Source: Candidatus Omnitrophota bacterium (GTDB taxonomy: Bacteria; Omnitrophota; Gorgyraeia; JABMRG01; JAFGKX01). From it: a stretch of DNA of 64,000 nt. Under the pieces are notes generated by a model. That model was not told the origin of the DNA. It did not search any database and saw only the letters and a program-made list of their open reading frames with translations. Each line of letters opens with the position of its first letter. Position 1 is the stretch's first letter. Of the stretch, positions 2,533 to 56,545 are shown piece by piece. The stretch spans positions 10,425-74,424 of the forward strand of contig JAZDPX010000032.1 in NCBI GenBank assembly GCA_043797125.1. The letters are read 5' to 3'. The position numbers and the translations under genes are program-made.

Positions 2533-3441
2533 ATGAAAACAAAATTATTATTGCCGGTGTTGGCAGTTATTGTATGTTTTTTAATTGTAAATTGCGCGCC
2601 TATTCTGGCCGCGGAGCTTACTTCCAAGCAGCTAAAAGACATAGAGAACGCCATAAAAAAAATAAAGGATAAGGCAAGAGGCGTCCAAAAAGAAGGTTAT
2701 GATGAACTTTTATCAATAGGGCCTGACGCGACAAGCCAGCTTATAGATTTATTAAAGGATAAAACAGTTGAAAGAGAGGCCTTGAGACAGGCATGTAATT
2801 TATTAGGAGAATACAAAACTAAGGACAAGGAAGCGGTTACGGTTTTAATATACACTTTAAAGAATCCATCCTATACTGTCCGCGCAGCTGCCTGCGAAGC
2901 GCTTGGAAAAATAGCGGATCAGTCGGCCGCGGAAGAGTTGCTTGGAATGCTTGTTGACGAGGAAAGCTTAGTCAGGGAAAAGGCAGCGTACGCTCTAATA
3001 AGTTTTGATAATAAAACCATTCCAGGAAAAGTTTGCGAACTTTTAAAAGACAAAGATGAATCTGTTAGAGTCGCAGCCATTACGCTGCTTAACGAAAAAC
3101 TGGATCCGGCAACTATTAATTCTATAATAAACACCCTGCAAAAAGACAAGGCCCCCAAAGCCCGTCAGATAGCAGCCCGGGCGCTAGGCGGCTTAAAGAA
3201 AAAGGAAACCGTCGATGTTCTTATGGAATCTGTTGTTGAAGACAGCGATAACCTTGTAAGAGAAGAGTGCGCATCTGCATTAGGGCAAATAAACGATGCA
3301 AAAGCTGTGCCAGCCCTGATAGAAGCCATAAAAGATGGCTATAAGGACGTGCAGTTAAAAGCATTATATTCGCTCAAGAAAATAACAGGTCAGGACTTTG
3401 GGAGAGATTATGAGAAATGGTCGCATTGGTATAAAAAATAG
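2533..3441 (+). CDS. HEAT/PBS-lyase repeat protein with N-terminal signal peptide
   Basis: RBS GGAGGA at 2515-2520, then ATG at 2533. Signal-like MKTKLLLPVLAVIVCFLIVNCAPILAA. Repeated ~30-aa units with VR(x)AA(x)ALG patterns (TVRAAACEALGKI, SVRVAAITLL, KARQIAARALGGL). Confidence 0.6.
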   Translation: MKTKLLLPVLAVIVCFLIVNCAPILAAELTSKQLKDIENAIKKIKDKARGVQKEGYDELLSIGPDATSQLIDLLKDKTVEREALRQACNLLGEYKTKDKEAVTVLIYTLKNPSYTVRAAACEALGKIADQSAAEELLGMLVDEESLVREKAAYALISFDNKTIPGKVCELLKDKDESVRVAAITLLNEKLDPATINSIINTLQKDKAPKARQIAARALGGLKKKETVDVLMESVVEDSDNLVREECASALGQINDAKAVPALIEAIKDGYKDVQLKALYSLKKITGQDFGRDYEKWSHWYKK

Positions 3442-3841
3442 AAGGCGAACGGGCTTTACGCTGGTTGAAATTATGATAGTGGTGTCAATTATCGCGCTTT
3501 TAGCATCTCTTTCCATACCGATTATATTGCGGGCTAGGCACAATGCTGATGAGGGCGCTGCGCAAACGTCGCTTAAAACCATATGCGGCGCTTGCGTGAG
3601 TTATTTTGGAGCCAATGAAGCATATCCTGATTCGCTTGAGCAACTTGCCGGTGAAGTGCCGCCGTATATTGACCCTGTTTTGGCCAGCGGCTCGTCCAGC
3701 GGGTATGATTTTGCATATGAGCCTGGAGATGACGGCGTCTCATTTACATGTACTGCAACTCCTCAAGTGCCGGGTAGGACAGGAACGCGCATATTTGTCA
3801 TAGATCAGAGCGGGCTTATAACAGAAAGCGAAGAAGAATAG
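3410..3841 (+). CDS. Prepilin-type N-terminal cleavage/methylation domain protein (type II secretion pseudopilin / type IV pilin-like)
   Basis: Leader ending in G, followed by FTLVEIMIVVSIIALLASL, the hallmark of class III signal peptides. Overlaps the 3' end of the upstream gene. Confidence 0.6.
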   Translation: MRNGRIGIKNRRRTGFTLVEIMIVVSIIALLASLSIPIILRARHNADEGAAQTSLKTICGACVSYFGANEAYPDSLEQLAGEVPPYIDPVLASGSSSGYDFAYEPGDDGVSFTCTATPQVPGRTGTRIFVIDQSGLITESEEE

Positions 3842-4050
3842 AGCAAAAAAGCGAGGTAAACAATGCCGCTGTATAAACTGATAAGGCCTTTAGGCATCAG
3901 TACATATATTGTTTTGTTATTAACTGTAATTTCCGGAATGCTCATATTGAAATTCCATGTAAGATGGGTCAAGATGAAATGGCATATCTGGTTGGGTTTT
4001 TTAACCCTGCTGTTAGGCACACTGCACGCAGTTATAATCCTTTTTTATAG

Positions 4051-5404: not shown

Positions 5405-5430
5405 GTAGCGCAGGCTTAAGCCTGCGCTAC
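5405..5430. repeat. CTTAAG-centred perfect palindrome (type 1) GTAGCGCAGGCTTAAGCCTGCGCTAC
   Basis: Perfect 26-bp palindrome immediately 3' of a gene. Member of a family recurring at least 8 times in the window. Confidence 0.85.
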
Positions 5431-5489: not shown

Positions 5490-6989
5490 ATGCGCTTAGT
5501 AGTTTTTTTATTGCTAATTAGCAGTATCTGTTTTTGTCCACAACTTAGTTACGCGCAGCAAAAAGATAAATTAGAGCAGGCGATATCGCTTTATCAGCAC
5601 GAGAATTATGAAGAAGCGCTCCAGCTGCTTAAGCAATTGCGCCAGGAAAACCCGGATTCTTCAAATGTCGCCTATTACACGGGCCTTACGTATAAACGCC
5701 TGCAGGATTATCCTTCTGCAAGGCCTCATCTCGAGGCAGCCGTCACGCTTAAACCGCCAGTAAAGAACGCATATATAGAACTAATAGATCTGCTTTATCA
5801 ATCCGACCAAACCGAAGATGCAAAGAAATGGATAGAGCTAGCCAGAGAGAATGAAACTTCGCCGTCACAACTTGCATTTTTCAGCGGCCTTTTATCCTTG
5901 AAAGTAAAGGATTTTGAAAGCGCTATAAAATCATTCGACGAGGCGCAAGAGCTTGATCAGGCGCTTGCAGATACCATTAAATATTATAAGGCCCTTGTAT
6001 ACGCGCAGTCAAAGCAGCTTAATAAGGCAAGGGATATTTTCAGGGAAATTATCACCAAAGACCCAACCACAGATCTTGCGGCATTTGCGGACGAGTACAT
6101 GGATGTTCTCTCTATTCAGGAAAAGGCAACCAGGCCGTTTAAGGGCTACCTGGGGTATGCGCTTCAATATGATGATAATGTTATCCTGAAGCCCAATGAT
6201 AAATCGCTGTCAACAGACACAGCGGGCGAGGATGATTGGCGTTCAGTCTTCGCAGGGTACGCGGAATATAATTTAAAGCCGTCAGATTTTTTTGGTGTGA
6301 AAACAACATATTCTATTTCTGATTCGAAGCAGTTTGATTTAGGATTCTACGACATGGTAAGCCAGGAGGTGGGGCTGCAGCCAGCATTTTATTTAAAAAA
6401 TGCGGCGGTGAGTTTTCCTGTTCGTTGCGTATTTTCAAGGTTAAACGATAAAAGGTATGTCCAGACCCTTGATGTAAGCAACTTAAATAATATAAAGATT
6501 AATAAAAACCAGATGCTTCAGGTTATGTTTCAATATAACAGGGATGATTTCAGATGGATAGTTACGGTTGACAATGACAACAAGGACTCAAATGAATATA
6601 TCGGTTCGTTAGGCTGGTTTTTGTTTTTTACAAAAAACAACGAGGGCTTTATTAACCTGCGTTATGCCGTAAATTTCGATGACGCGAAAGGCAACAACTG
6701 GAAATATTTCGGCAACAAGCTGACCTTTACCAGCACCGTTCCTATCGGGAAAAAATTAAAATGGAGCTTAGTCGGCGATTATTACAGGCAGGATTATAGA
6801 AAAATAAACACTTCTTATGATAAAGAGCGCTATGATAATATCCTGACTGTGTCAAACCTCGTGTCTTATGAAATATTTAAAGATATAGATTTGCAAATCC
6901 AGCATACATTTATGGATGATTTGGCAAGCATAGGAGTTTATAAATATAACCGCAACATATATAGCTTAGGTCTAAAATACAGATTTTAG
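5490..6989 (+). CDS. TPR-repeat protein, putative outer-membrane beta-barrel (C-terminal Phe)
   Basis: RBS AAGGAG then ATG. Signal peptide MRLVVFLLLISSICFCPQLSYA. TPR-like N-terminal third. The C-terminal half has alternating hydrophobic beta-strand patterns and ends in ...LGLKYRF, a typical OMP C-terminus. Confidence 0.45.
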   Translation: MRLVVFLLLISSICFCPQLSYAQQKDKLEQAISLYQHENYEEALQLLKQLRQENPDSSNVAYYTGLTYKRLQDYPSARPHLEAAVTLKPPVKNAYIELIDLLYQSDQTEDAKKWIELARENETSPSQLAFFSGLLSLKVKDFESAIKSFDEAQELDQALADTIKYYKALVYAQSKQLNKARDIFREIITKDPTTDLAAFADEYMDVLSIQEKATRPFKGYLGYALQYDDNVILKPNDKSLSTDTAGEDDWRSVFAGYAEYNLKPSDFFGVKTTYSISDSKQFDLGFYDMVSQEVGLQPAFYLKNAAVSFPVRCVFSRLNDKRYVQTLDVSNLNNIKINKNQMLQVMFQYNRDDFRWIVTVDNDNKDSNEYIGSLGWFLFFTKNNEGFINLRYAVNFDDAKGNNWKYFGNKLTFTSTVPIGKKLKWSLVGDYYRQDYRKINTSYDKERYDNILTVSNLVSYEIFKDIDLQIQHTFMDDLASIGVYKYNRNIYSLGLKYRF

Positions 6990-9643: not shown

Positions 9644-10639
9644 ATGGCAAGCGAAGGGATTACAGCGATAAACGAGAAGATAAAGAAAGAAAGCGTGTTT
9701 GTGCAGAGTTTGGTGACAGAGATAGAAAAAGTCATAGTTGGGCAGAAGTATCTGATAGAAAGGCTCTTAGTTGGGCTTCTGGCAAACGGGCACATACTGG
9801 TCGAAGGCGTGCCCGGGCTTGCCAAGACAATGTCAATAAAGACATTGTCGCAGGCTATAAAGACAAAATTTCAGAGGCTGCAGTTTACGCCTGACATGCT
9901 GCCTGCCGATATAGTGGGCACGCTTATCTATAATCCGAAAGACGGCGCGTTCACGACAAAAAAGGGCCCGGTGTTTGCCAATATTATTCTTGCGGATGAA
10001 ATAAACAGGGCCCCGGCGAAAGTCCAGAGCGCGCTTTTAGAGGCAATGCAGGAGCGCCAGGTCACAATAGGCGAAAACACTTTTAAACTTGACGACCCTT
10101 TCCTGGTTATGGCAACGCAAAATCCAATAGAGCAGGAAGGCACCTATCCTTTGCCTGAAGCGCAGGTGGACAGGTTCATGCTTAAGGTAAACATAACTTA
10201 TCCAAGCAAGGAAGAAGAGCATAAGATATTAAAGAGGATGGGCTATACCGACAAAAAGATCGAGGTAAACGCTGTTGTAACTCCGCAGGATATTATAAGG
10301 GCAAGGTCTGTTGTGGATGAAGTATACATGGATGAAAAGATAGAAAAATATATTCTGGATATTGTTTTTGCCACAAGAGAGCCTAAAAAATACAAGCTGG
10401 ATGAATTAAGCAGCCTCATTCAGTATGGCGCCTCACCACGCGCGACCATATATCTGACATTGGCTTCCAAGGCGTACGCGTTTATTCAAGGCAGGGGCTA
10501 TGTAACGCCGCAGGATATAAAATCAATAGGCCCTGATGTCCTGCGCCACAGAGTGATAATAAGCTATGAGGCGGAGGCTGAAGAGAAAACCTCCGATGAT
10601 ATTATTAAGAAAATATTCGATGAAGTTGAAGTACCTTAA
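9644..10639 (+). CDS. moxR: MoxR-family AAA+ ATPase
   Basis: Walker A GVPGLAKT, Walker [10 protein letters not shown], sensor region MATQNP. Length 331 aa, typical for MoxR. Confidence 0.9.
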
Positions 10640-11559: not shown

Positions 11560-12117
11560 GTGTATGCGATTGCGTTTGCGGCTGATATAAAAGACATAAA
11601 ACCCCCGATACTTAGGCATCCCGCTTCTTTGCCTAAGAATTATTTTTTGCTTTTTGTTGTTGCCGCGCTGCTTTTGGCGGCAATACTCTTATTTATGAGA
11701 TATTTGCGAAAAAGAAAATTAAAGGCCCAAACGCAAAATTCTGTTCAGATAAAAAGGCCTGCGCACGAAATAGCTTACGAAGCATTGCAGGCCTTAAAAC
11801 TCAAGAACCTTCCGGGCCAAGGCAGGATAAAGGAGTATTATATCGAGCTTTCCTGGATTGCCAGGATTTATATAGAAAACCGTTTTAACATCAGGGCGCC
11901 GGAGATGACTACGGAGGAATTTCTGTTTTTCTTAAGAGAATCGGAAGTGTTATCTGGGGCGCATAAAAATTTGCTCAAGGAATTTTTGACGTTGTGCGAT
12001 ATTGTAAAATTCGCAAAATATGCCCCCTTGCAAAACCAGATAGATGACAGTTTCGATGCTGCCAAAAGATTAGTTGATGAAACAAAAGAGCAAAATATAG
12101 CTGTAGCGCAGGCTTAA
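11560..12117 (+). CDS. Membrane protein of the MoxR/Bat operon (DUF4381-like); GTG start
   Basis: Single TM segment (FLLFVVAALLLAAILLF) then a soluble domain. Position between the DUF58 gene and batA matches the conserved operon. The palindrome at 12103-12128 overlaps its stop codon, with TAA supplied by the central CTTAAG. Confidence 0.45.
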   Translation: MYAIAFAADIKDIKPPILRHPASLPKNYFLLFVVAALLLAAILLFMRYLRKRKLKAQTQNSVQIKRPAHEIAYEALQALKLKNLPGQGRIKEYYIELSWIARIYIENRFNIRAPEMTTEEFLFFLRESEVLSGAHKNLLKEFLTLCDIVKFAKYAPLQNQIDDSFDAAKRLVDETKEQNIAVAQA

Positions 12118-12128
12118 GCCTGCGCTAC
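12103..12128. repeat. CTTAAG-centred palindrome (type 1) overlapping a stop codon
   Basis: gtagcgcaggcttaagcctgcgctac. The stop TAA lies within the central cttaag. Confidence 0.85.
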
Positions 12129-14186: not shown

Positions 14187-14218
14187 GCCGTAGCGGAGCC
14201 TTAAGGCTCCGCTACGGC
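14187..14218. repeat. CTTAAG-centred palindrome (type 2) GCCGTAGCGGAGCCTTAAGGCTCCGCTACGGC
   Basis: Perfect 32-bp palindrome. Arms differ from type 1 by paired, compensatory substitutions (CAGG/CCTG to GAGC/GCTC). Confidence 0.85.
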
Positions 14219-15105: not shown

Positions 15106-15137
15106 GATGTAGCGCAGGCTTAAGCCTGCGCTACATC
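15106..15137. repeat. CTTAAG-centred palindrome (type 1, extended to a 32-bp perfect palindrome)
   Basis: gatgtagcgcaggcttaagcctgcgctacatc. Confidence 0.85.
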
Positions 15138-17954: not shown

Positions 17955-18060
17955 GTCGTTCGGCTGGGGCCCCTCCGAAATTCACCTAAAGATAGTAGGT
18001 CAGGCTTAAGCCTGACCTACTATCCAAGGGTTCAGTTTCGGTGTCCCCAGCCTGCACTCC
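17955..18060. repeat. About 105-bp composite imperfect palindrome with a perfect 34-bp CTTAAG-centred core (type 3: GATAGTAGGTCAGGCTTAAGCCTGACCTACTATC, 17991-18024)
   Basis: The flanks cggctggggcccctccgaaattcacc and ggttcagtttcggtgtccccagcctg are imperfect inverted repeats around the perfect core. Lies within the 530-bp non-coding region upstream of the giant gene. Confidence 0.7.
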
Positions 18061-27815: not shown

Positions 27816-27826
27816 GAAGAGTGTAA

Positions 27827-27860
27827 AGCCGTAGCGGAGCCTTAAGGCTCCGCTACGGCT
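27827..27860. repeat. CTTAAG-centred palindrome (type 2, 34-bp perfect) plus an adjacent small hairpin cttgccggctggcaag; apparent insertion into a 3' motif that is uninterrupted at 62989-63015
   Basis: agccgtagcggagccttaaggctccgctacggct, flanked by gtgtaaag on the left and gcgttaagtgtaaagt on the right. Confidence 0.8.
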
Positions 27861-27973
27861 TGCCGGCTGGCAAGCGTTAAGTGTAAAGTAACAGCGTAGG
27901 ATATTTGATGTAAAGATAGCCGTAACTATTACAAATAACGTTGCGGCTATTTTAATATGAAGGATTTAATTTT

Positions 27974-32146: not shown

Positions 32147-32176
32147 CCGTAGCGGAGCCTTAAGGCTCCGCTACGG
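32147..32176. repeat. CTTAAG-centred palindrome (type 2)
   Basis: ccgtagcggagccttaaggctccgctacgg, directly after the polX stop. Confidence 0.85.
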
Positions 32177-32188
32177 TTGTGGATTATA

Positions 32189-34960
32189 ATGAATAACAAA
32201 AACCATGATGTTATTGTAATCGGCGCGGGCCACGCAGGCTGCGAAGCTGCTTTGGCAAGTGCGCGCATGGGATGTCTCACCCTTATTATTACATTCAGCA
32301 AGGAGAAAATAGGATACATGTCCTGCAATCCGGCCATAGGCGGCTTGGGCAAGGGGCAGCTTGTCAAGGAAATCGATTCACTTGGCGGTGAAATGGCGCG
32401 CGCTACGGATTCCTGCGCAATACAATTCAGGATGTTGAATACCTCAAGAGGCGCTGCTGTGCGCTCATCGCGCGCGCAGGTTGACAGAAAAAGGTATTCT
32501 TTATATATGCAGAAGCAGCTGGCAAGCGAAAAAGGCCTCCAGATACTTGAGGATGAGGTTATAGGGTTAACGGTTAAAGGTGCGGTTGTTACAGGCGTAG
32601 AGCTTGCCGACGGAAATAAAATAAACGCCAAGGCAGTAATAGTAACTCCGGGCACATTTTTAAACGGTTTGATACACATTGGCATGAAAAGCTTTGAGGG
32701 CGGTAGGATAGAGGATAAAAAATCAAGCAAGCAGCTATCAGATTACTTAAAAGCCTTAGGGTTCAATATCCTGCGCTTTAAAACAGGCACATGCGCGCGT
32801 TTAGATGGCAAGACAATAGATTTTTCAAAGATGCAGCCTCAAATAGGTGACGAACCTCCTAAGCCTTTCTCCTTAAGCACGAAAAAACTTGATATTAACC
32901 AGGTTCCGTGTTATATTACTTATTCTAATAATAGGACACACGAGATTATTCTCAAAAATCTTGACCGCTCACCCCTATTTAGTGGAAAGATTACAGGCAC
33001 AGGCGTTCGCTACTGCCCTTCTTTTGAAGACAAGGTAGTTAAATTTCCTCATCACGATAGGCACCAGATATTTATTGAACCCGAAGGCAAGGATAGCGAT
33101 GAATTCTATCCTAACGGGCTTTCGACAAGTTTGCCGGAAGACGTTCAGATGGAGTTTATACATTCTATTCCCGGCTTGGAAAACGCCAAAGCCAACCGTT
33201 TAGGTTACGGGATAGAGCACGACGCAGTAGACCCGACGGCACTTTACCCTACTTTAGAAACAAAGCTCATTGAAAATTTGTATTTAGCCGGCCAGATTAA
33301 CGGCACAACAGGCTATGAAGAGGCAGCTGCTCAAGGCCTGATAGCAGGCATAAACGCCTCGTTAAAAGTAAAAAATAAACAGCCTTTGATTTTGGACCGT
33401 TCAAGCAGCTATATCGGAGTTTTAATAGACGATCTTACAACTAAAGGTACAAATGAGCCTTATCGCATGCTTACATCGAGAGTCGAATACAGGCTGCTTT
33501 TGCGCGAGGATAACGCTGATGCGCGTTTGCGTAAAATCGGTTTTGAGTTGGGCCTTGTAAGCGAGGCTGAATTGAAGGATACCGAGGAAAAGCAGAAAAA
33601 TATCGCGCAGGGAATAAAATATTTGGAAGAGCACAGCACATCCGTCGACGGCGAAAAGATCAATCTTTGCCAGTTTTTGAAGAGGCCGCAGGTAAGCATA
33701 GAAGGCATAAAGGAAAGTATACCCTTTGATTATTCCGCCGATGTACTTAAAGGCATTGAGATTGAAGTTAAATATTCAGGCTTCATCAAAAGGCAGTCCG
33801 CGCAGATAAGAAGCTTTAAAAATCTTGAGAAGATAAAAATACCCGCTAATTTAGATTACGTTAATATGAGCGCGCTTTCGCTTGAGACAAAAGAAAAGCT
33901 TTCCAAATTTAAGCCTGTGAATTTAGGCCAGGCGAGCAGGATATCGGGGATTACTCCGGCAGCGATAAGCGTGTTAATGATATACCTGAAGAAAGAGGGG
34001 ACGGTTCACTCCCAAGCGTGGAAAGTGTCCCCAAAGCACAGAAGTGGGGGTAAGGGGACACTTCCCAATCTTGGGAGTGAACCGTCCCCATATCGTAAAT
34101 TTTCACAATATTTAAAAGACAAATTCGGATGCAAAGTTTATAAAGTAAGCGTTGACGCGGGATTTGACTGTCCTAACCGCGACGGAAAGTTAAGCAAGGC
34201 AGGATGTATATTTTGCGATAATAAGGCGTTTAGTTTTAACAGCCGTTTTAGTCAAAAGCCGCTTAAAAAACAGATAGAAGACGGTATAGCGTTCGGTAAA
34301 AACAGGTACGCGGCAGAAAAATTCATAATATATTTTCAAGCTAATACAAACACATACGCGCCGGTTTGTGTTCTTAAGGAAAAATACGACACAGTTAAAG
34401 AATTCGGCGATATAGCAGGTATAAGCATAGGCACTAGGCCTGATTGCGTTAATGATGAGATTTTAGATTTAATAGCAAGCTATGCGTCAGATTACGATGT
34501 GTGGGTTGAGTATGGTTTGCAGAGCATACATAAAAAATCTTTGGAATTTTTAAACAGAAACCATTCTTACGAAGATTTTTTGGACGCTGTTCGAAAAGCA
34601 AAAAAAAGAAACATTAAGATATGCGCGCATGTGATTATAGGCCTTCCCAACGAAACGAAAGATGAAATTTTACAGACAGCAAAGGAGCTGGCGCGTCTTA
34701 AAATAGACGGCGTAAAAATTCATCCTCTTTATATTGTAAAGGGAACAAGCCTTGAAGCGCTTTTTAGAAGCAGTGTGTATAAACCGCTGGAATTAGATGA
34801 GTTTGTAAATCTGGCAGCGGCATTTTTGGAGAATCTTTCGCCGGACACCGTGGTCCAGCGAATAGGCGCTGATTGCCCTCCGGAAATGCTTGTTGAGCCG
34901 TCGTGGATACTTGAAAAGGAAAGAGTTCTTAACATGTTGGATGAAAAGCTAAGGAGTTAA
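32189..34960 (+). CDS. mnmG: tRNA uridine-5-carboxymethylaminomethyl modification enzyme MnmG (GidA), fused in one reading frame to a TIGR01212-type radical SAM domain
   Basis: MnmG: DVIVIGAGHAGCEAA, ...GITPAAISVLMIYLKK (canonical C-terminus). Frame then continues through a 93-bp palindrome into KFGCKVYKVSVDAGFDCPNRDGKLSKAGCIFC (TIGR01212 radical SAM signature). No in-frame ATG/GTG/TTG is available for an independent radical SAM start near the junction. Confidence 0.7.
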   Translation: MNNKNHDVIVIGAGHAGCEAALASARMGCLTLIITFSKEKIGYMSCNPAIGGLGKGQLVKEIDSLGGEMARATDSCAIQFRMLNTSRGAAVRSSRAQVDRKRYSLYMQKQLASEKGLQILEDEVIGLTVKGAVVTGVELADGNKINAKAVIVTPGTFLNGLIHIGMKSFEGGRIEDKKSSKQLSDYLKALGFNILRFKTGTCARLDGKTIDFSKMQPQIGDEPPKPFSLSTKKLDINQVPCYITYSNNRTHEIILKNLDRSPLFSGKITGTGVRYCPSFEDKVVKFPHHDRHQIFIEPEGKDSDEFYPNGLSTSLPEDVQMEFIHSIPGLENAKANRLGYGIEHDAVDPTALYPTLETKLIENLYLAGQINGTTGYEEAAAQGLIAGINASLKVKNKQPLILDRSSSYIGVLIDDLTTKGTNEPYRMLTSRVEYRLLLREDNADARLRKIGFELGLVSEAELKDTEEKQKNIAQGIKYLEEHSTSVDGEKINLCQFLKRPQVSIEGIKESIPFDYSADVLKGIEIEVKYSGFIKRQSAQIRSFKNLEKIKIPANLDYVNMSALSLETKEKLSKFKPVNLGQASRISGITPAAISVLMIYLKKEGTVHSQAWKVSPKHRSGGKGTLPNLGSEPSPYRKFSQYLKDKFGCKVYKVSVDAGFDCPNRDGKLSKAGCIFCDNKAFSFNSRFSQKPLKKQIEDGIAFGKNRYAAEKFIIYFQANTNTYAPVCVLKEKYDTVKEFGDIAGISIGTRPDCVNDEILDLIASYASDYDVWVEYGLQSIHKKSLEFLNRNHSYEDFLDAVRKAKKRNIKICAHVIIGLPNETKDEILQTAKELARLKIDGVKIHPLYIVKGTSLEALFRSSVYKPLELDEFVNLAAAFLENLSPDTVVQRIGADCPPEMLVEPSWILEKERVLNMLDEKLRS
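33997..34089. repeat. 93-bp nested palindrome (20-bp perfect outer arms and about 12-bp inner arms) lying in-frame at the MnmG/radical-SAM junction
   Basis: ggggacggttcactcccaag ... ggaaagtgtcccc ... ggggacacttcc ... cttgggagtgaaccgtcccc. 93 bp = 31 codons with no stop. Confidence 0.8.
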
Positions 34961-42259: not shown

Positions 42260-44457
42260 ACAAAGATACATACAGGGCGTTAGGCCTGACAGACACCGAG
42301 TATGAAAAGATTTTAAGCCTGTTAGGGCGTGTGCCGTCACCTACGGAACTGGCGATGTTTTCTGTCGAGTGGTCGGAACACTGCGGTTACCCGCGTTCGC
42401 GAAACCTTCTTAAATTATTGCCGAAAAAAGGAAAATACCAGGTCTTGATAGGAGAAGATTCGGGCGGCATTATAGTAGATGACCTGGCCATTGTCTTTAA
42501 AATGGAAAGCCACAATCACCCCTCGCAGGTAGAGCCGAAACAAGGCGCTGCCACAGGCGTAGGCGGAATAATAAGGGATATCTTTACAGCAGGCGCAAGG
42601 CCTATTGCTTCGTTGAATTCTTTAAGATTCGGGCCGTTAAGCGAACCATATAACAGGTATCTTTTAAAAGGCGTGGTTGACGGAATACAATTTTACGGCA
42701 ACTGCCTTGGCGTGCCTACCGTCGGCGGGGAGATATATTTTGACGAAAGCTATTCGGGAAATTGCCTTGTAAACGCAATGAGTATCGGCATAGCGAAAAA
42801 GGACTGCCTTGCAAGGGCAAAGGCCTTTGGTGTAGGCAACTCGATTATGTACGTGGGCTCAAGCACGGGAAAAGACGGTATCGGCGGATGCAGCGTTTTG
42901 GCGTCGAGTGAATTTAAAGAAGGCGAAGAAAAAAGGCCAACAGTCCAGATAGGCGACCCTTTTACGGAAAAATGTTTGATAGAAGCGACATTAGAGGCAT
43001 TAGCCACGGGCCACGTAATCGGAATCAAGGATATGGGCGCAGCAGGGCTCACCTGTTCAACAAGCGAAATGGCTCAAGCCGGAGGCTGCGGCATAGACAT
43101 GGACCTGGATAAAGTTCCGCGCAGGGAAGAAAACATGGAACCATGGGAAGTGATGATGTCCGAATCACAGGAGAGGATGCTGGTTTGCGTTAAAAAGGGA
43201 AAAGAAAAAGAAATAGAGAAGATTTTTCAAAAATGGGATTTACACGGTGTTGTTATTGGAAAGGTTACTACAGACGGCATTGTGACAATTAAAGATAAAG
43301 GCAATATTGTGGCCCAAGTAAAGGCAAATGATTTAACCAATGCCCCTGTCTATGATATGCCTTATGTAAAGCCAAGCTCCCTGGATGAAATTATAAAGTT
43401 GGATATGAAAACAATTCCCCAACCTGAAGATTATAATGAGGTATTAATTAAATTATTGGAGTCACCATCAATAGCCAGCAAAGAATGGGTTTATCAGCAA
43501 TATGACCACATGGTGCAGACAAACACAATATGCCTGCCTAATATGGGCGCTAGTGTAGTCAGGTTAAAAGGCACTAAAAAGGCAATTGCAGCTACCACTG
43601 ACTGCAACAGCAGATATTGTTTTTTAAATCCCCATAGAGGCGCGCAGATTGCGATAGTGGAAGCGGCGAGAAATTTAGTAGCAGTCGGCGCAGAGCCTGC
43701 GGCAGTTACAGATTGCCTTAATTTTGGAAATCCTGAGAAACCTGACAGATTCTGGTATTTTAAGAATTGCGTAGAGGGTATTATAGATGCCTGTAAGGCA
43801 TTTAATATTCCAGTTGTAAGCGGCAACGTCTCGTTTTACAATGAAAACCCAAGAGGCGCTATTTACCCGACGCCTTCAATAGGAATGATCGGAATCATAG
43901 ATGATGTTAGCAGGGTCTGCACTCAGAATTTCAAAGACAAGGCCGATATAATAATGCTTTTGGGCGATTGCAAGGAAGAATTAGGCGCAAGCGAATATTT
44001 AAAGCAGGTTCACGGCCTTGTCAGAGGCGATGCGCCAAGCCTGGATTTGGCTTCGGAAAAAAATATCCAAAATGCAGCGCTTAAAATGATAAGAAACGGC
44101 CTTGTAAAATCCGCTCACGACTGCTCTGAAGGCGGATTAGCCGTTGCCATTTCAGAATGCTGCATAAGCGACAAAGAAAACATGATAGGCGCGGTGATTA
44201 ATAATCTTCCCTTTGATATCAGGAAGGACGCGCTTTTATTCGGAGAAACGCAGTCGCGCATTATCTTAAGCTGCAGTATGGATTGCGTTGATAAGATAAA
44301 AAAGACTGCCAAAGATAATGATGCCTCGCTGCATATAATAGGCACAGTCGGCGGCGATGTTTTAAAAATTTCAGCTAAACAAAAAGAGCTGATAAATATG
44401 CCTGTTGAAAAATTACATGACAGCTGGAGTAATTCTTTGAGGAAAATGATTGGTTGA
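42238..44457 (+). CDS. purL: Phosphoribosylformylglycinamidine synthase subunit PurL
   Basis: 739 aa. AIR-synthase-related duplicated domains; HNHPS motif ([11 protein letters not shown]). Confidence 0.9.
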
Positions 44458-44541
44458 GCGCAGATGATCACAGATTGAAAGACACAGATGATCACAGATA
44501 TCTGCGATCATCTTGTATCCTTTAATCTGTGATAATCTGCG
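44458..44541. repeat. 84-bp imperfect composite palindrome between purL and hisH (arms about 85% complementary), built from gatgatcacagat / atctgtgatcatc units
   Basis: gcgcagatgatcacagattgaaagacacagatgatcacagat | atctgcgatcatcttgtatcctttaatctgtgataatctgcg. Confidence 0.75.
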
Positions 44542-44562
44542 TTAAAAAAATTATTTTAAAAA

Positions 44563-45186: not shown

Positions 45187-45967
45187 AAGAATCATCCCAT
45201 GCCTTGATGTAAAAGACGGCCGCGTGGTAAAGGGGATAAACTTCATTAATTTAAAAGACGCAGGAGACCCTGTTGAATGCGCCGCAGCCTATAGCAAGGA
45301 AGGCGCTGACGAACTTGTATTTCTGGATATAACAGCAAGCCACGAGGCAAGAAAGACAATGCTTGAGGTTGTGCGAAAGACAGCGGAACAGGTGTTTATT
45401 CCTTTTACGGTCGGCGGCGGCATATCAAGTATCGAGGATATAAGACTGCTTCTAAAGACCGGCGCAGATAAGATTTCAATAAATACAGCAGCTGTCGAGA
45501 ACCCGGATTTGATTAAGCAGGGCGCCGAAGCGTTTGGGAGTCAATGTATAGTTGTTGCTATAGACGCGAAAGAACAAAAGCCAGGACCATCGACCATCGA
45601 CCATCGACCATCAACTAAAACATGGGAAGTATATACTCATGGGGGAAGAAAGCCTACTGGAATCGACGCTATAGAGTGGGCCAAGAAGGCCGAGAGCTTA
45701 GGCGCTGGCGAGATTTTACTTACAAGTATGGATAGAGACGGCACAAAAGACGGTTATGATTTAAAATTGACGCGCGCTATTTGCGAAGCTGTTAATATTC
45801 CTGTAATCGCATCAGGCGGGGCAGGGACTTTGCAGCATTTATGCGATGCGTTGTCAAAAGGTAAAGCAGACGCAGCTCTTGCAGCTTCGATTTTTCACTA
45901 CGGAGAATATTCTATTAAGGAAGCGAAGGGGTATCTTAGGAAACAGGGGATAGAAATCAGGGTTTAA
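45167..45967 (+). CDS. hisF: Imidazole glycerol phosphate synthase cyclase subunit HisF (with an in-frame heptamer-repeat insertion)
   Basis: [16 protein letters not shown], (beta/alpha)8 phosphate-binding motifs GGGI and SGGAG. Confidence 0.9.
45588..45615. repeat. Tandem heptamer CCATCGA x3-4 inside the hisF coding sequence (encodes [10 protein letters not shown])
   Basis: ccatcga ccatcga ccatcga ccatcaa. Its reverse complement GTCGATG is the same unit as the array at 10645-10675. Confidence 0.85.
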
Positions 45968-46066
45968 AATTAAAAATTCAAAATGCAAAATGCAAAATTG
46001 CAATTTAAAATTCAAAAACTGGAGTTTTTTAATTTTTAATTGAAATTTTACATTTTTACTTTTTAA
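45968..46066. repeat. About 100-bp extremely AT-rich low-complexity spacer with inverted aaattcaaaat/attttgaattt ends; contains a 20-mer (aaaatgcaaaatgcaaaatt) identical to the batD start region
   Basis: aattaaaaattcaaaatgcaaaatgcaaaattgcaatttaaaattcaaaaactggagttttttaatttttaattgaaattttacatttttactttttaattttgaatttcaaaattt. Confidence 0.7.
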
Positions 46067-46101
46067 TTTTGAATTTCAAAATTTACGGAGTAAACTGGAC
46101 A

Positions 46102-49019: not shown

Positions 49020-49742
49020 ATGGCAAAGACTAAAAAGACACATACAAAAGAATCAGATACCGGCAAGCAAGTGATAGGCGCCTTAGCCAAAATAAGCGAG
49101 GTTATTACCTCCGATCTGTATCTTGAAGATATTCTAAAATTAATAGTTAATGTCACTGCCGAGGCAATGGGCTCCAAGATATGTTCTCTTATGCTGCTGG
49201 ACAAGGGAGGTAATGAGCTTTCAGTCAAGGCCACGCAGTCTGTGAGCGAAAGATATAATAAAAAACCTAATATAAAATTGGGTCAAGGCATAGCCAGCAT
49301 AGTGGCTAAAACAGGCGAGCCCATTACATCCGCGGACGTAAGAAAAGACGAGCGTTATTTAAGCCGCGATGTAGCGATAAAAGAGAAACTTTGTTCTTTA
49401 TTATGCGTGCCTTTGATTTTTAAAAAGAGGGTCATAGGCGTGCTTAACTGCTATACAGCAAAGCCGCATCGTTTTACGCAGAATGAGATAAGCGTGATAA
49501 AATCCGTTGCGAATCAGGCTGCCATTGTTATCGAGAATTTCAGGCTGGTTATTGAGTCCAAGGTAATAAAAGAAGAGCTTGAGGCCAGGAAGATAATAGA
49601 AAAGGCCAAAGGCATCTTAATGAAGCGCGAGAATTTATCCGAGCAGGACGCCTACCAGAAAATCCGAAAATACAGCATGGATAACCGCAAGTCCATGCGT
49701 GAAGTTTCCGAAGCGATTGTGCTAAGTGAAGAGATAAAATGA
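49020..49742 (+). CDS. GAF + ANTAR domain RNA-binding antiterminator-type regulator
   Basis: GAF-like region (KICSLMLLDKGGNELSVKA...VIGVLNCY). C-terminal ANTAR motif (ARKIIEKAKGILMKRENLSEQDAYQKIRKYSMDNRKSMREVSEAIV). Confidence 0.75.
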   Translation: MAKTKKTHTKESDTGKQVIGALAKISEVITSDLYLEDILKLIVNVTAEAMGSKICSLMLLDKGGNELSVKATQSVSERYNKKPNIKLGQGIASIVAKTGEPITSADVRKDERYLSRDVAIKEKLCSLLCVPLIFKKRVIGVLNCYTAKPHRFTQNEISVIKSVANQAAIVIENFRLVIESKVIKEELEARKIIEKAKGILMKRENLSEQDAYQKIRKYSMDNRKSMREVSEAIVLSEEIK

Positions 49743-49771
49743 CTTAGCAGGCCTTAAGGCCTGCTAAGTCA
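49740..49771. repeat. CTTAAG-centred palindrome (type 4, 32-bp perfect) TGACTTAGCAGGCCTTAAGGCCTGCTAAGTCA, beginning in the ANTAR gene stop codon
   Basis: Perfect palindrome. Arms differ again from types 1-3 by compensatory changes while retaining CTTAAG. Confidence 0.85.
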
Positions 49772-49793
49772 TTCCCGCGGAAGCGGGGATCTA

Positions 49794-52502: not shown

Positions 52503-53654
52503 ATGAACAAAAATAGAGGGGGCATATATATAACCCAATCACAAGGTTATAAGGCTTTTATCCCAACAAAACTTCCGCCAAAACCGCCGCTTAATATCGA
52601 TAATACAATTATAGAGTTGTTATCAAAGGCAGATATAGCTATCGGCCGCCTTTCGGGTATATCTGAAACACTGCCTAATCCTGACTTATTTGTCGCCATG
52701 TACGTAAGGAAGGAAGCTGTTTTGAGTTCTCAGATAGAAGGAACAGAAGCGTCCTTAGAAGATTTATTAGAGTATGAATCCGGAAATGGGGTAAAAAAAT
52801 TGCCAAATGATATAACAGAAGTTGTCAATTATATTAAGGCAATGAACTATGGATTAAAACGCATAAATGAGCTGCCTCTCTCTCTTAGATTAATCAAGGA
52901 AATCCATTTTGAATTAATGGAAGGTGTTAGGGGCGGTGATAAGACTCCGGGCGAGTTTAGAAAAACACAAAATTGGATAGGCCCAAAAGGATGCGTTTTA
53001 AACAATGCGAGGTTTGTGCCTCCTCCGCCGCATGAAATGATTCAGGCCTTGAGCGATTTAGAAAAATATATGCATTCCGAGTTAAATTATCCGCTGCTGA
53101 TAGAATGCGGGCTTATCCACACTCAATTTGAAACTATACACCCGTTTTTAGATGGTAACGGCCGCATAGGAAGATTGCTTATCGCATTTTTTTTATGCCA
53201 TAAAGGAATATTGAAAAAACCATTGCTCTATTTGAGTCATTATTTCAAACAAAACCGCCTTGAATATTACGATAGGCTTATGAATGTAAGGGAAAAAGGA
53301 GATTTTGAATCCTGGATAGAATTTTTTCTGGAAGGCGTTAAAGAAACAGCCCAAGAGGCCTGTGAAGCATCTTATAAAATATTGAAGTTAAAAGATGCTG
53401 ACAGAAGAAAAATCAGTGAAATTTATAAAGAATCCTCAAAAACAGCGTTACTGCATGAAAAGTTATTTGACAGGCCTGTTATTTCAATAAAAGATATAGC
53501 TGCTATTATAAATACCACTTTCCCAACAGCAAATTCCATTTGCAGCAAACTTATTAAATTGGGTATATTAAAAGAGGTAACAGGCAAAGAAAGAAATAAA
53601 TTGTTTACTTATAAAAGCTATTTGGATATTCTTAAACAAGAAGCTAATGTTTAA
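52503..53654 (+). CDS. fic: Fic-family protein (FIC domain with C-terminal winged-helix-like region)
   Basis: Canonical FIC motif HPFLDGNGRIGRLL (HPFxDGNGRxxR). Confidence 0.85.
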   Translation: MNKNRGGIYITQSQGYKAFIPTKLPPKPPLNIDNTIIELLSKADIAIGRLSGISETLPNPDLFVAMYVRKEAVLSSQIEGTEASLEDLLEYESGNGVKKLPNDITEVVNYIKAMNYGLKRINELPLSLRLIKEIHFELMEGVRGGDKTPGEFRKTQNWIGPKGCVLNNARFVPPPPHEMIQALSDLEKYMHSELNYPLLIECGLIHTQFETIHPFLDGNGRIGRLLIAFFLCHKGILKKPLLYLSHYFKQNRLEYYDRLMNVREKGDFESWIEFFLEGVKETAQEACEASYKILKLKDADRRKISEIYKESSKTALLHEKLFDRPVISIKDIAAIINTTFPTANSICSKLIKLGILKEVTGKERNKLFTYKSYLDILKQEANV

Positions 53655-53688
53655 ATGTTACGATTACAGCTACTAAGAAGCAGGCCTC

Positions 53689-53717
53689 TTGACAAACCCA
53701 AAATCGTGTGGTATAGT
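53689..53717 (+). promoter_or_regulatory. Sigma70-like promoter TTGACA-17-TATAGT downstream of fic
   Basis: ctcTTGACAaacccaaaatcgtgtggTATAGTtatg. Confidence 0.45.
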
Positions 53718-53723
53718 TATGTT

Positions 53724-53788
53724 GTAACAAGGCGCGATGTTGGCGCTTAAATTTTAACAAAGGCGTTCGAAAGAACGCCTTATTTTTT
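53724..53788 (+). ncRNA. Candidate about 65-nt small RNA (promoter to intrinsic terminator)
   Basis: Promoter at 53689-53717, followed within about 45 nt by GGCGTTCgaaaGAACGCCttatttttt (53762-53788). A second terminator lies at 53797-53838 (GGTGTTC...GAACACCtttttt). Confidence 0.3.
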
Positions 53789-53796
53789 AGGACAAA

Positions 53797-53838
53797 GGTG
53801 TTCTTATGCCTGAAGAAAGGCATGGGAACACCTTTTTT
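53797..53838 (+). terminator. Second intrinsic terminator (tandem with 53762-53788)
   Basis: aGGTGTTCttatgcctgaagaaaggcatggGAACACCtttttt. Confidence 0.55.
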
Positions 53839-53913
53839 ATTGATAGGGGCCTCGTGGTCCTGTTCTATCTTTGGTTCGGTTTTTGCAATGCTTGGTGCTG
53901 AAATCTTAAGCAA

Positions 53914-53954
53914 TCTTTTGTGTGGTTGCCTTCGCTTGCCGCTCGCAAAAAGGA
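53914..53954. repeat. Right copy of the island-bounding direct repeat, followed by a repeat-dense gcaaaaa/tttttgc region to about 54135
   Basis: See 49794-49835. Downstream recurring motifs: cgctcgcaaaaa, tttttgctcgc, ggcaaaaattgc, tttcgcaatttttgac, ccttgcaaaaacc. Confidence 0.7.
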
Positions 53955-54142
53955 TTTTTCGCCTTCGGCGAAAGGCACTTTTTGCTCGCTGTGGCAAAAA
54001 TTGCTCACTTCTCGCCGGGTTTTCGCAATTTTTGACAGTCGCTCCGGCAACACACACAAAAGCTTTTGCAAATGTATCTCACCTTGCAAAAACCTCACCG
54101 ACACTAAAAGTCAGGCCGAGGGGTTATTTTAGGCAAAGTTAG

Positions 54143-54229
54143 CGGCGGGTGTCTGGCCGAGCCGAAGCCCTCACCGCCCGCAACGAAAGTGAGGACGGTG
54201 AGGTGGCTCGGCCAGACAGGCCCCGCCAC
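54143..54229 (+). promoter_or_regulatory. GC-rich about 87-nt extended hairpin upstream of the sigma-factor gene (candidate structured RNA or REP-like element)
   Basis: gcggcgggtgtctggccgagcc...cctcaccg...cggtgagg...ggctcggccagacaggccccgcc. Outer stem about 20 bp, inner stem 8 bp. Strongly GC-rich relative to its surroundings. Confidence 0.5.
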
Positions 54230-54264: not shown

Positions 54265-54783
54265 ATGGATTTTAAGATTTTACTGGAGAAAATAACGCCT
54301 GCGCTAAAGGCCATTGCCAGAAAGAGGCTGCTTTACAGTTTCTACAGCGAAGAGGACCTTTATCAGGAGATGTGCCTTTTTCTGTGGAGCAGGTATAAAG
54401 ATGGTATGCCTATCGGTTTTAATGAGTCGTATATAATTAAGGCATGCGAATTTCATATGTTGAATTTCTTAAGAAAAGGCAGGCCAAAGGTAATGTTGAT
54501 GAGCTTGGATGAGCCTATTACGTCAGAAGGGCTCAGGCTTGAGGATATTTTAGAAGACAAAAAAGATACCTTTTCTGAAAGCGCAGATAGAAACATAAGC
54601 ATAGATGATATTAAAAACATAGGCCTTACGCCTAAAGAAAATAATGTATTCTCGCTTTTGCTTAAAGGTTACACAGTAAGGGAAGCGGCGCAAGAACTGG
54701 GCATCTCCCATGTCATGGTGCTTAAATATAAGAAGAATATAATAAGGAAGTGGGTTACCAAGAGTAAGAAAAATTTACTTTAG
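54265..54783 (+). CDS. Sigma-70 family (ECF-like) RNA polymerase sigma factor
   Basis: Region-2-like LYQEMCLFLWSRY. Region 4 HTH LTPKENNVFSLLLKGYTVREAAQELGISHVMVLKYKKNIIRKW. Confidence 0.6.
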   Translation: MDFKILLEKITPALKAIARKRLLYSFYSEEDLYQEMCLFLWSRYKDGMPIGFNESYIIKACEFHMLNFLRKGRPKVMLMSLDEPITSEGLRLEDILEDKKDTFSESADRNISIDDIKNIGLTPKENNVFSLLLKGYTVREAAQELGISHVMVLKYKKNIIRKWVTKSKKNLL

Positions 54784-56403: not shown

Positions 56404-56420
56404 GCGTTAATGACAGGCGA

Positions 56421-56545
56421 GAGTTAGAATATCAGATTATAAGAGTATCAGAACGAGATTATCAGAGAATCAGAGTATCAGATAAATCTGGTGATCTTAT
56501 GTTCTGATATTCTCGCTCTGATAATCTGGTCTTCTGATAATCTTT
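56421..56545. repeat. About 125-bp imperfect palindrome between glnK and glnA: left half has multiple TATCAGA units, right half multiple TCTGATA units
   Basis: gaatatcagattataagagtatcagaacgagattatcagagaatcagagtatcagataaatctggtgatcttatgttctgatattctcgctctgataatctggtcttctgataatc. Confidence 0.75.

Follow-up and report, generated by a model that had tools for sequence, protein, structure and literature searches.

REP/BIME and ERIC/IRU of the enterobacteria and Correia/NEMIS of Neisseria are transcribed hairpin repeats found in operon junctions. MIRU of the mycobacteria are intercistronic tandem direct repeats that lie in a single orientation, with their ends near the adjacent stop and start codons or overlapping them. 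Some repeats enter genes. The Rickettsia palindromic elements (RPE; Ogata et al. 2000) are in-frame palindromic repeats within genes, as given in PMC10969869, and ERIC and other repeats of the miniature inverted-repeat transposable element type are occasionally intragenic and in frame (PMC10969869). Here we describe a 93-bp nested palindrome at positions 33997-34089 of a 64-kb stretch of Candidatus Omnitrophota DNA (assembly GCA_043797125.1, contig JAZDPX010000032.1; the whole stretch is termed the window). It lies in frame between the tRNA modification gene mnmG and a gene of the mnmL type. We read the locus as a copy of a hairpin repeat at the mnmG/mnmL junction that gives a real translational fusion, a 923-residue bifunctional protein with a repeat-derived linker, and on sequence evidence place the probability of this at about 0.65.

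MnmG, together with MnmE, installs the cmnm5 or nm5 group on U34 of tRNA, and MnmL/YtqA acts later in the mnm5s2U pathway. Fusions known from this pathway are MnmC1-MnmC2 (MnmC), YtqA/MnmL-MnmC2 and YtqA/MnmL-MnmM; the fusions to MnmC2 and MnmM, and clustering with mnmM, tied MnmL/YtqA to mnm5s2U synthesis, and caution has been expressed because function varies within the TIGR01212 subgroup (bioRxiv 10.1101/2023.12.21.572861). E. coli YhcC has been assigned to the same pathway under anaerobiosis (10.64898/2026.05.18.725915). The link to mnm5s2U synthesis dates only from 2023-2026 and the interplay with MnmEG is under active study. The fusion considered here is like the known ones in that consecutive U34 enzymes are joined and the partner is a TIGR01212/IPR005911 radical S-adenosylmethionine (SAM) protein. 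It is unlike them in that the other partner is MnmG, the enzyme of the first step. Neither MnmG fusions nor Omnitrophota are mentioned in the main text and supplements of the first report, in the form available, or in the main text of the second, which dropped proteins of more than 400 amino acids.

The element resembles RPE as a short, multi-copy palindromic repeat (RPE are approximately 100-150 bp) that lies in frame in a coding gene, adding a peptide while the protein is kept; in RPE the added segment tends to be tolerated at surface or linker positions. The phylum is different and the likeness is one of in-frame behaviour, not of sequence relationship. Moreover RPE lie within single genes, whereas the window copy bridges two adjacent genes, most copies of its family are intercistronic and all the others are co-oriented. 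The finding is best classed as new with regard to an apparently undescribed Omnitrophota hairpin repeat as the MnmG-MnmL linker, and as known with regard to in-frame palindromic insertion and a recurrent fusion architecture. It would extend the RPE-type concept of selfish DNA in genes to an uncultured phylum and to gene fusion, and a hairpin repeat supplying the entire linker of a bifunctional enzyme would be a concrete case in genome evolution.

A nested palindrome in an open mnmG-mnmL frame

The palindrome is open inside an open reading frame (ORF) at 32177..34960, which has 927 codons from TTG 32177 and 923 from ATG 32189. The second start is the likelier, as homologue N-termini align from MNNK.., and gives a protein of 923 amino acids. 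The relevant features are as follows.

32189..33994, + strand: MnmG part, amino acids 1-602 of 923, ending ...ISVLMIYLKK
33989..33996, + strand: purine-rich 5' flank AAGAAAGA, covering the two K codons plus bases 1 and 2 of the E codon
33997..34016, + strand: outer 5' arm GGGGACGGTTCACTCCCAAG, perfect complement of 34070-34089, aligning with RGRGACGTTTC...CAAAG of the repeat family
34020..34032, + strand: inner 5' arm GGAAAGTGTCCCC, which the family conserves most strongly
34025..34027, + strand: in-frame GTG inside the inner arm, a possible, unproven internal start equivalent to the ATG of GAGGAAAATG (column 37)
34033..34053, + strand: loop AAAGCACAGAAGTGGGGGTAA, like the loops at loci L005, L023 and L018 (CAAAGCG..AGAA..TAA), in sense orientation
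34054..34065, + strand: inner 3' arm GGGGACACTTCC
34070..34089, + strand: outer 3' arm CTTGGGAGTGAACCGTCCCC
34090..34092, + strand: 3' flank ATA, common to many family copies (CGTCTCT followed by ATA; alignment A3, columns 104-106)
34091..34960, + strand: MnmL/YtqA radical-SAM part, from YRKFSQYLK to the stop, Cys motif CPNRDG...GCIFCDN intact
34096..34098, + strand: out-of-frame TAA within the codons CGT AAA, where mnmG of unfused relatives stops, inside the F/Y-Y-K codons of mnmL

Both the exact coordinates of the nested, two-level palindrome and the absence of a stop from its 31 codons, as given in the original prediction, were confirmed. The order along 33997-34089 is GGGGACGGTTCACTCCCAAG-CGT-GGAAAGTGTCCCC-AAAGCACAGAAGTGGGGGTAA-GGGGACACTTCC-CAAT-CTTGGGAGTGAACCGTCCCC. 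A repeat finder assigns overall arms of 36 nucleotides (nt), 92% complementary, and a 21-nt loop; there are three mismatches and the bulges are unequal, of 3 nt and 4 nt. The G+C content is 59% compared to 42% for the window. The RNA fold has an energy of -68.5 kcal/mol against -33.9 +/- 4.1 in dinucleotide shuffles (z = -8.48). Just two sites for the 20-mer outer arm occur within the window, even allowing three mismatches, and shuffles lead to an expectation of 0. The palindrome extends from the third base of a GAG codon to the second base of a CCA codon. The mnmG frame through it has no stop, another frame is also open and the third contains TAA and TGA.

Both halves of the ORF are well matched by family models. 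TIGR00136 (MnmG) scores 820.8 bits (cutoff 524.85) over amino acids 11-607, covering profile positions 2-615 of 616, and Pfam assigns GIDA, GIDA_C_1st and SAM_GIDA_C to this part. The frame then runs, as had been proposed, into a complete TIGR01212 protein, with 342.2 bits (cutoff 180) over amino acids 639-926 and profile positions 2-290 of 302. The current NCBIfam name of this model is "tRNA modification radical SAM protein MnmL/YtqA". Radical_SAM (PF04055) and Radical_SAM_C (PF16199) are also present, and the radical-SAM Cys motif CPNRDGKLSKAGCIFCDN (CxxxxDG..GCxxC) is conserved in alignment A1. By these sequence matches the radical-SAM half belongs to the MnmL/YtqA family, with a predicted enzymatic function. 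The further claim that this half has no start of its own nearby also held, with no in-frame ATG, GTG or TTG between the 3' end of the palindrome and YRKFSQYLK. The only in-frame candidates are GTG 34025, in the palindrome, and ATG 33977, in mnmG.

The 93 bp encode the linker (E)GTVHSQAWKVSPKHRSGGKGTLPNLGSEPS(P), 32 residues between MnmG and MnmL, and peptides spanning the predicted MnmG-linker-MnmL junction include GTLPNLGSEPSPYR. From the translation the palindrome supplies essentially the whole linker; with it removed about one residue is left between YLKK and YRKFS, as opposed to about nine or more in other fused proteins. An AlphaFold2 prediction with an alignment of fused homologues is confident for both the MnmG and radical-SAM domains and gives residues 605-631 as coil, with no secondary structure and a predicted local confidence score (pLDDT) <50. 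A segment rich in G, S, P and K and predicted to be coil suits a flexible tether. The palindrome peptide, in its four open frames, has no match among 5.8 billion proteins. An exact look-up of the 927- and 923-residue proteins in an assembly index gave no entry.

Several other explanations of a palindrome at this position were considered. Neither a terminator-like nor a promoter-like site was found in 33700-34400, and the 3' flank of the palindrome is ATATCGTAAA. An intrinsic terminator or attenuator was rejected, the hairpin being G+C-rich with no T run on its 3' side. Programmed translational bypass of the phage T4 gene 60 type involves matching take-off and landing codons with a stop right after the take-off site; here the flanking codons, AAA GAG GGG and TCC CCA TAT, are unmatched and there is no in-frame stop, and this possibility was also dismissed. 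An intron-like element and a local inverted duplication of flanking sequence were both rejected on a reading of the sequence together with membership of the repeat family described below. Rfam returned just sub-threshold microRNA-precursor look-alikes, generic hairpins, for the palindrome and nothing at gathering thresholds for the whole window.

A family of nested hairpins in Omnitrophota

The first lead to relatives of the palindrome came from chance 13-nt matches to the inner arm at L005, in a low-stringency BLAST search against loci fetched for synteny. This locus, from the metagenome-assembled genome (MAG) GCA_964570585.1, has a related 94-nt nested palindrome in the polX-mnmG spacer (9900-9993), and the MnmG of the same MAG (P0034) falls in the clade of the window protein. 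The family was scanned for with a pattern of inner arms, GAAARTGTCCCC N10-40 GGGGACAYTTYC. There are ten family copies on six contigs of this MAG, further copies on JGI contigs Ga0315543-549 and related repeats in two other Omnitrophota MAGs. About half of the pattern matches, among them those in Brachybacterium, Clostridia and Prevotellaceae, come from perfect hairpins that contain the 12-mer without being related; these were removed by requiring the family outer arm. The resulting set has 17 distinct copies, 16 in addition to that in the window, in an alignment of 111 columns. GCA_964570585.1 (CAZMYR01 contigs: L007, L013, L018, L022-L027, L029) carries the label "uncultured Planctomycetia bacterium", which is probably wrong given that P0034 groups with proteins named Candidatus Omnitrophota.

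Elements of this dispersed family are roughly 95-100 bp in length, membership being defined with a total of about 93-95 nt. All 17 copies have the same inner stem, GGAAARTGTCCCC / GGGGACACTTYCC. In the window the arms of this stem, GGAAARTGTCCCC and GGGGACAYTTYCC in the family, are at 34020-34032 and 34054-34065 and enclose a loop of 21 nt, within the usual ~19-23 nt. The outer stem, of 20-24 nt, starts RGRGACG.TTC and ends GAA.CGTCYCY; in the window 20 of 20 positions of the arms are complementary. Three versions of this stem, AGAGACGTTTCCAGTTTCAAAG, AAGACCGTTTCTGAAACCAAAG and the GGGGACGGTTCACTCCCAAG of the window, all keep pairing. Across the alignment 96.8% of cells are paired and compensatory changes occur in 14 of the 33 pairs, levels reached by none of 500 shuffles, and sliding the partner by one column reduces pairing to 54-59%.

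A covariance model, R2, built from the 16 other copies with the window copy left out, scores the window palindrome at 63.4 bits (E ~2e-15) and every other hairpin in the window at 25.6 bits or less. The CTTAAG palindromes and AT-rich hairpins of the window were rejected as members, scoring 17-26 bits with a similarity of structure only. The alignment and model indicate that the window palindrome is a diverged copy of an Omnitrophota nested-hairpin repeat family. Of the 17 it has diverged furthest, and its variant represents the GGGGACGGTTCAC subfamily. The repeat family is apparently undescribed. A literature search on palindromic repeats in Omnitrophota gave nothing relevant, and Rfam contains no family comparable to the nested-hairpin repeat.

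The copies are placed in a regular manner. All 16 others lie in very short junctions of co-directional operon genes, in one orientation relative to transcription (two-sided binomial ~3e-5 if the copies are independent, although L023 and L042 at least represent the same locus). Excluding L057, which is unplaced, and L042, where the upstream gene is cut at the contig end, 14 copies have a traceable upstream gene. The upstream stop is 5-24 nt before the element in ten of these, inside it in three (L038, L007 and L026) and beyond it in one (L013 3040-3134). On the other side a long ORF begins with an ATG 5-8 nt past the element in seven copies and 16-33 nt past it in six, four of which have their own GGAG-like motif in the spacer. 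Junctions in L013 include rpsP-[element]-trmD and prfA-prmC-[element]-murA. In the latter (3013-3981, minus strand) the prmC (hemK) ORF reads through the element and overlaps the murA start, so that the repeat encodes a C-terminal extension of ~40 amino acids (...KRRFQFQRGKCPPKRLENKLGDTFPFETGNVS...). On these sequences, reading frames that run through family copies are not unique to the window.

The window copy is at the mnmG/mnmL junction, just as other copies are at gene junctions. It differs from them in that the mnmG frame has no stop ahead of it or inside it, and no start codon follows it in frame; mnmG and mnmL are therefore read as one. By score its orientation may be the usual one (sense 63.4 bits, antisense 58.2 bits), and its flanks and loop resemble the sense strand. 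It lacks, however, the A.C asymmetry by which orientation is marked in the other copies. The purine-rich 5' flank of the family is RGAAAG, with A at columns 8-9 in 16 of 16 other copies. The window flank at 33989-33996 resembles it, but whether this is native mnmG or derived from the element is ambiguous (alignments A3 and A4 and the cmsearch alignment).

No direct duplication flanks any of the 17 copies, and the flanks are asymmetric, RGAAAG on one side and ATA on the other. A classical miniature inverted-repeat transposable element has terminal inverted repeats, a target-site duplication and a parent insertion sequence with matching ends. The element here does have inverted termini. No transposase, parent insertion sequence or RAYT was identified for the family, and no search for them was made. 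Copies at L005 and L046 (A3) are chimeric, with 5' and 3' outer arms of different subfamilies that are complementary at only 16 of 24 positions and a GAAACC direct repeat on both arms. Family loops occur in both orientations between subfamilies, which with the chimeric copies suggests recombination or inversion between copies. At L023 (1368-1461) and L042 (1204-1297) the element precedes the same downstream gene (MKGLKINP(K/E)RVKKKL...) in two organisms, with different outer-arm subfamilies and inverted loops. Either an old insertion has been homogenised within each genome by concerted evolution or the junction is a hot spot.

The family shares with REP/BIME, ERIC/IRU and Correia/NEMIS a position as hairpins in operon junctions, concerted variation and the overlap of some copies with ORF ends. 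To our knowledge those families are not described as having a stem nested at two levels whose 13-nt inner arm, GGAAARTGTCCCC, never varies, and the co-orientation of all 16 other nested-hairpin copies with the flanking genes is a further difference. The GTAG 5' head of REP is missing from the 93-bp element, while the CTTAAG family of the window carries GTAGCG. Like MIRU the copies are intercistronic in operons and in one orientation; unlike MIRU they are palindromic, and there is no sequence similarity.

With its nested stem, strict co-orientation and placement between stops and starts, the family may have a role in operon mRNA or translation. The sense strand has AAAGAGGAAAATG, a Shine-Dalgarno-like sequence and then an ATG, in 15 of the 16 other copies, the antisense strand having AAAGGGGAAAGTG, and these are the only consistent strand asymmetries in the family. 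One explanation of the window locus that follows this line is that MnmL is also, or instead, made by internal initiation at GTG 34025 or at ATG 33977 (the Met of LMIYLKK), the element acting as a portable start site. The occurrence of GAGGAAAATG at the equivalent sense-strand position in 15 of 16 other copies is in favour, as is its reading phase, the ATG at L013 1408-1498 being in frame with the downstream trmD ORF and the window GTG with mnmL. We nevertheless consider such initiation improbable. Upstream of the window GTG stands GCGTGGAAA, which matches a Shine-Dalgarno sequence poorly, and a G+C-rich stem of 13 bp encloses the codon; mini-ORFs that begin at the family ATG terminate at varied places, with no conserved use; a one-in-three chance of being in frame is unremarkable, and trmD of L013 has its own GGAG and TTG start.

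A broader proposal, which we regard as speculative and rather unlikely, is that the family is more than selfish DNA and acts as a portable translation module, intercistronic and strand-specific. The hairpin would bring the RGAAAG flank, itself Shine-Dalgarno-like, near to a start codon 5-8 nt past the 3' end, and the two strand asymmetries would provide the family's own GAGGAAAATG, Shine-Dalgarno and ATG, on the sense strand only. In the window the module would have joined mnmG to mnmL, and the in-frame GTG would then allow a separate MnmL in addition to fused MnmG-MnmL. If the module proposal were true, repeat-driven rewiring of operon junctions would be one route to recurrent MnmG-MnmL fusions.

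Recurrent fusion and the origin of the window ORF

What did the junction look like before the genes were joined? In the closest unfused relatives mnmG and mnmL overlap by 8-23 nt and there is no intergenic region. At L001 (P0014) mnmG ends ...YLKKYKNERKVL-TAA and the ATG of mnmL is 20 nt upstream of this stop in another frame (MKERFYKFSRYLK...). The two genes share 23 nt at the P0017 locus and 8 nt at L006 (ATGGATAG). Approximately a quarter of unfused MnmG proteins end in KVL, KIL or EIL, a tail that we take to represent a stop inside the F/Y-Y-K codons of mnmL and so an overlap in those genomes. The TAA at 34096 of the window, compared with L001 7829-7833, was not accepted as proof of an ancestral mnmG stop. 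It is weak evidence because any NNT AAA codon pair creates TAA. The original prediction had, as one option, the element replacing the mnmG stop and an intergenic region and thereby making the fusion. The position does fit with the unfused relatives, but the second part of the replaced sequence does not exist in them, since the genes overlap.

Fusion of the two genes occurs elsewhere. A search with the 923-residue protein gave at least 13 other full-length clusters of fused MnmG-radical SAM proteins, 890-959 amino acids in length, from JGI, ENA, NCBI and Logan assemblies, those with names being Candidatus Omnitrophota or Omnitrophica. They are 52-66% identical over 98-100% of the query and both Pfam domain sets are present; one additional fused homologue is partial, ending at a contig end. 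Their linkers, between YLKK and YY(K/R)FS, have ~9-22 unalignable residues compared to 32 in the window, and in the alignment of fused proteins none of the linkers contains the palindrome peptide. The fused gene at L002, checked as DNA, is continuous with an A-rich lysine linker and no palindrome. The fused protein is, on this comparison of sequences, an ordinary and recurrent state of the mnmG/mnmL gene pair. The overlap explains the recurrence: wherever the stretch from the mnmL start to the mnmG stop gains or loses a number of bases that is not a multiple of three, the two frames are joined. That other Omnitrophota have made the same fusion repeatedly argues that it is probably functional.

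Fused forms are scattered over a neighbour-joining (NJ) tree of the MnmG part, and parsimony on 100 bootstrap NJ trees requires 8-10 changes between fused and unfused states. Every one of the 100 replicates places an unfused protein nearest to the window MnmG, and in 72 of them that protein is P0014. The sequences thus point to a fusion state that changes often and to a window protein whose closest known relatives are unfused, with the proviso that deep nodes are weak. Both halves are closest to the unfused L001 pair (MnmG 73.8%, MnmL 68.4%) and next to the fused P0001 (68.4% and 66.6%, respectively). Since the closest pair is the same, the halves have a shared history and nothing suggests a foreign origin.

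These data bear on the other option raised in the original prediction, a missed stop or frameshift. An indel error of 1-2 nt in or next to the hairpin would hide the mnmG stop, the genes being separate as in L001, L006 and the P0017 locus. Strong hairpins do cause sequencing and assembly errors, the nearest relatives are unfused and the other frames stop in or just past the element (TAA 34051 and TAA 34096 in one, TAA near 34113 in the other). Recurrent fusion makes a missed stop or frameshift less likely, and fused orthologues are common. Moreover both domains are intact over 923 codons, and family copies in independent assemblies are also read through by flanking ORFs. Even with such an error mnmL has no start codon downstream of the element. 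None is created by a frame error ahead of the element, and a single error does not therefore restore two normal genes. We judge an artefact to be quite unlikely.

If the fusion is real, how did it arise? We consider it slightly more likely than not that arrival of the element made the fusion. A family copy would have entered a junction that in the closest relatives is an overlap of 8-23 nt; translation from mnmG would run through the stop-free stretch encoded by the hairpin into mnmL, and the product would join consecutive pathway enzymes as MnmG, a linker of 32 residues with predicted disorder and MnmL. The closest relatives are all unfused. Simple insertion is insufficient. When exactly the 93 bp are deleted the frames stay fused and hardly any linker remains, from which it follows that insertion alone did not create the fusion and that an extra deletion or indel, or an older fusion, is needed. 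Deletion of 92 nt restores an mnmG end of ...KKEIS* but leaves mnmL without a start (TGA AGA AAG AGA TAT...).

The older fusion would be specific to this lineage and due to a small indel in the overlap, the repeat later entering a dispensable linker and replacing most of it, where it would have survived for want of a stop and with a length divisible by three. Several observations are compatible with this sequence of events: fusions arise often in Omnitrophota without the element, the element is 93 bp, or 31 x 3, with the frame intact after its removal, and homologue linkers are unconserved and variable, hence tolerant of change. A deletion must however be added to account for the single residue or so that is left without the element where other proteins have about nine or more, and all of the nearest MnmG relatives are unfused. 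We regard this history as possible but distinctly less probable than one in which the element made the fusion.

A last alternative is that insertion inactivated the locus, giving a recent and undecayed pseudo-fusion in which the hairpin blocks translation and MnmL is not made. In L003/L004 (11855-11946) and L005 (11813-11821) there is no mnmL after mnmG; the gene order at L003 is that of the window (polX ... mnmG - gdhA - carB) minus mnmL. On the gene orders, mnmL is dispensable or relocated in part of the clade to which the window belongs. Such dispensability and the great stability of the hairpin would allow for a dead locus. There is, however, no stop or frameshift in 2.7 kb, the matches to hidden Markov models are full-length and high-scoring and the catalytic Cys motif is conserved. 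The mismatches and unequal bulges of the palindrome may also mean age, though the family has internal loops at the same position. We consider inactivation very unlikely.

The reading that we prefer, a functional fusion with a repeat-derived linker, presumes that the sequence is free of indels and that the fused protein would be made and active, and it takes as the probable cause that the element arrived together with a small deletion or indel. Beyond the persistence of the fused frame on removal of the 93 bp, a number of points count against it. The fusion is read from an assembly, in which a 1-nt indel in a strong hairpin, a classic assembly or sequencing error, would split the genes. There is no second copy of the palindrome in the 64-kb window and the exact 20-mer arm has no match in GTDB representative genomes (596 Gb) or JGI metagenome contigs; mobility of the element in this genome is inferred from the copies in its relatives. 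The closest relative is only 74% identical, and no empty site is seen among the compared genomes. Deep NJ support is weak: just 15 of the 100 replicates group the window with eight unfused sequences in one clade. In addition ribosomes may be hindered by so stable a hairpin (-68 kcal/mol) within the reading frame.

Overlapping mnmG-mnmL pairs and at least 14 natural fusions, including that of the window, provide Rosetta-stone evidence that MnmL works physically beside MnmG, and the fusions are ready-made constructs for biochemistry. With respect to annotation, two-gene ORFs that bridge palindromes deserve neither automatic splitting nor dismissal as errors.

Other palindromes in the window and related genomes

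A second and more abundant hairpin family in the window genome consists of eight palindromes, each perfect, 26-36 bp long and with CTTAAG at the centre; most have GTAGCG(C/G)AGG arms (a REP-like GTAG head). They are unrelated in sequence to the 93-bp element, a distinction that had been drawn from the start. Each is found in a short junction of co-directional genes or extends a few bases into the end of a gene. Their positions are:

5405-5430, CTTAAG palindrome
12103-12128, CTTAAG palindrome
14187-14218, CTTAAG palindrome
15106-15137, CTTAAG palindrome
17991-18024, CTTAAG palindrome
27826-27861, CTTAAG palindrome
32147-32176, CTTAAG palindrome
49738-49773, CTTAAG palindrome

The palindrome at 32147-32176 is in the polX-mnmG spacer, which in GCA_964570585.1 holds a nested-hairpin copy. 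The same junction has been taken by different repeat families in related genomes, and in the window mnmG has a repeat on either side.

Other Omnitrophota MAGs (JAUSED01, JAQTUD01) have different repeat families built on the same GGGGAC...GTCCCC cores, at L020 (482-528, 701-747, 1641-1773, 2493-2549 and 2718-2764), L028 (655-798 and 1898-1968) and L021 (~5960-6080). One such family comprises tandem units of TAGGGGACACTTTCC-28 nt-GGAAAGTGTCCCCTA and another has the sequence AAAAAATGGGGACAGTCCCCAAAAGGCGGGGACAGTCCCCATTTTTT. Across the phylum the 13-nt motif seems to serve as a building block, and it is possibly a protein-binding site.

The window also has an 85-nt hairpin at 54142-54226, with ~65% G+C and 22-nt arms, between the divergent ORFs 53644-54057 (-) and 54265-54783 (+); no Rfam family has a match to it and it does not correspond to a tRNA. 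The intergenic spacers at 44443-44557, 45963-46085 and 56420-56543 hold A+T-rich inverted repeats that are long and imperfect, the arms measuring 27-53 nt.

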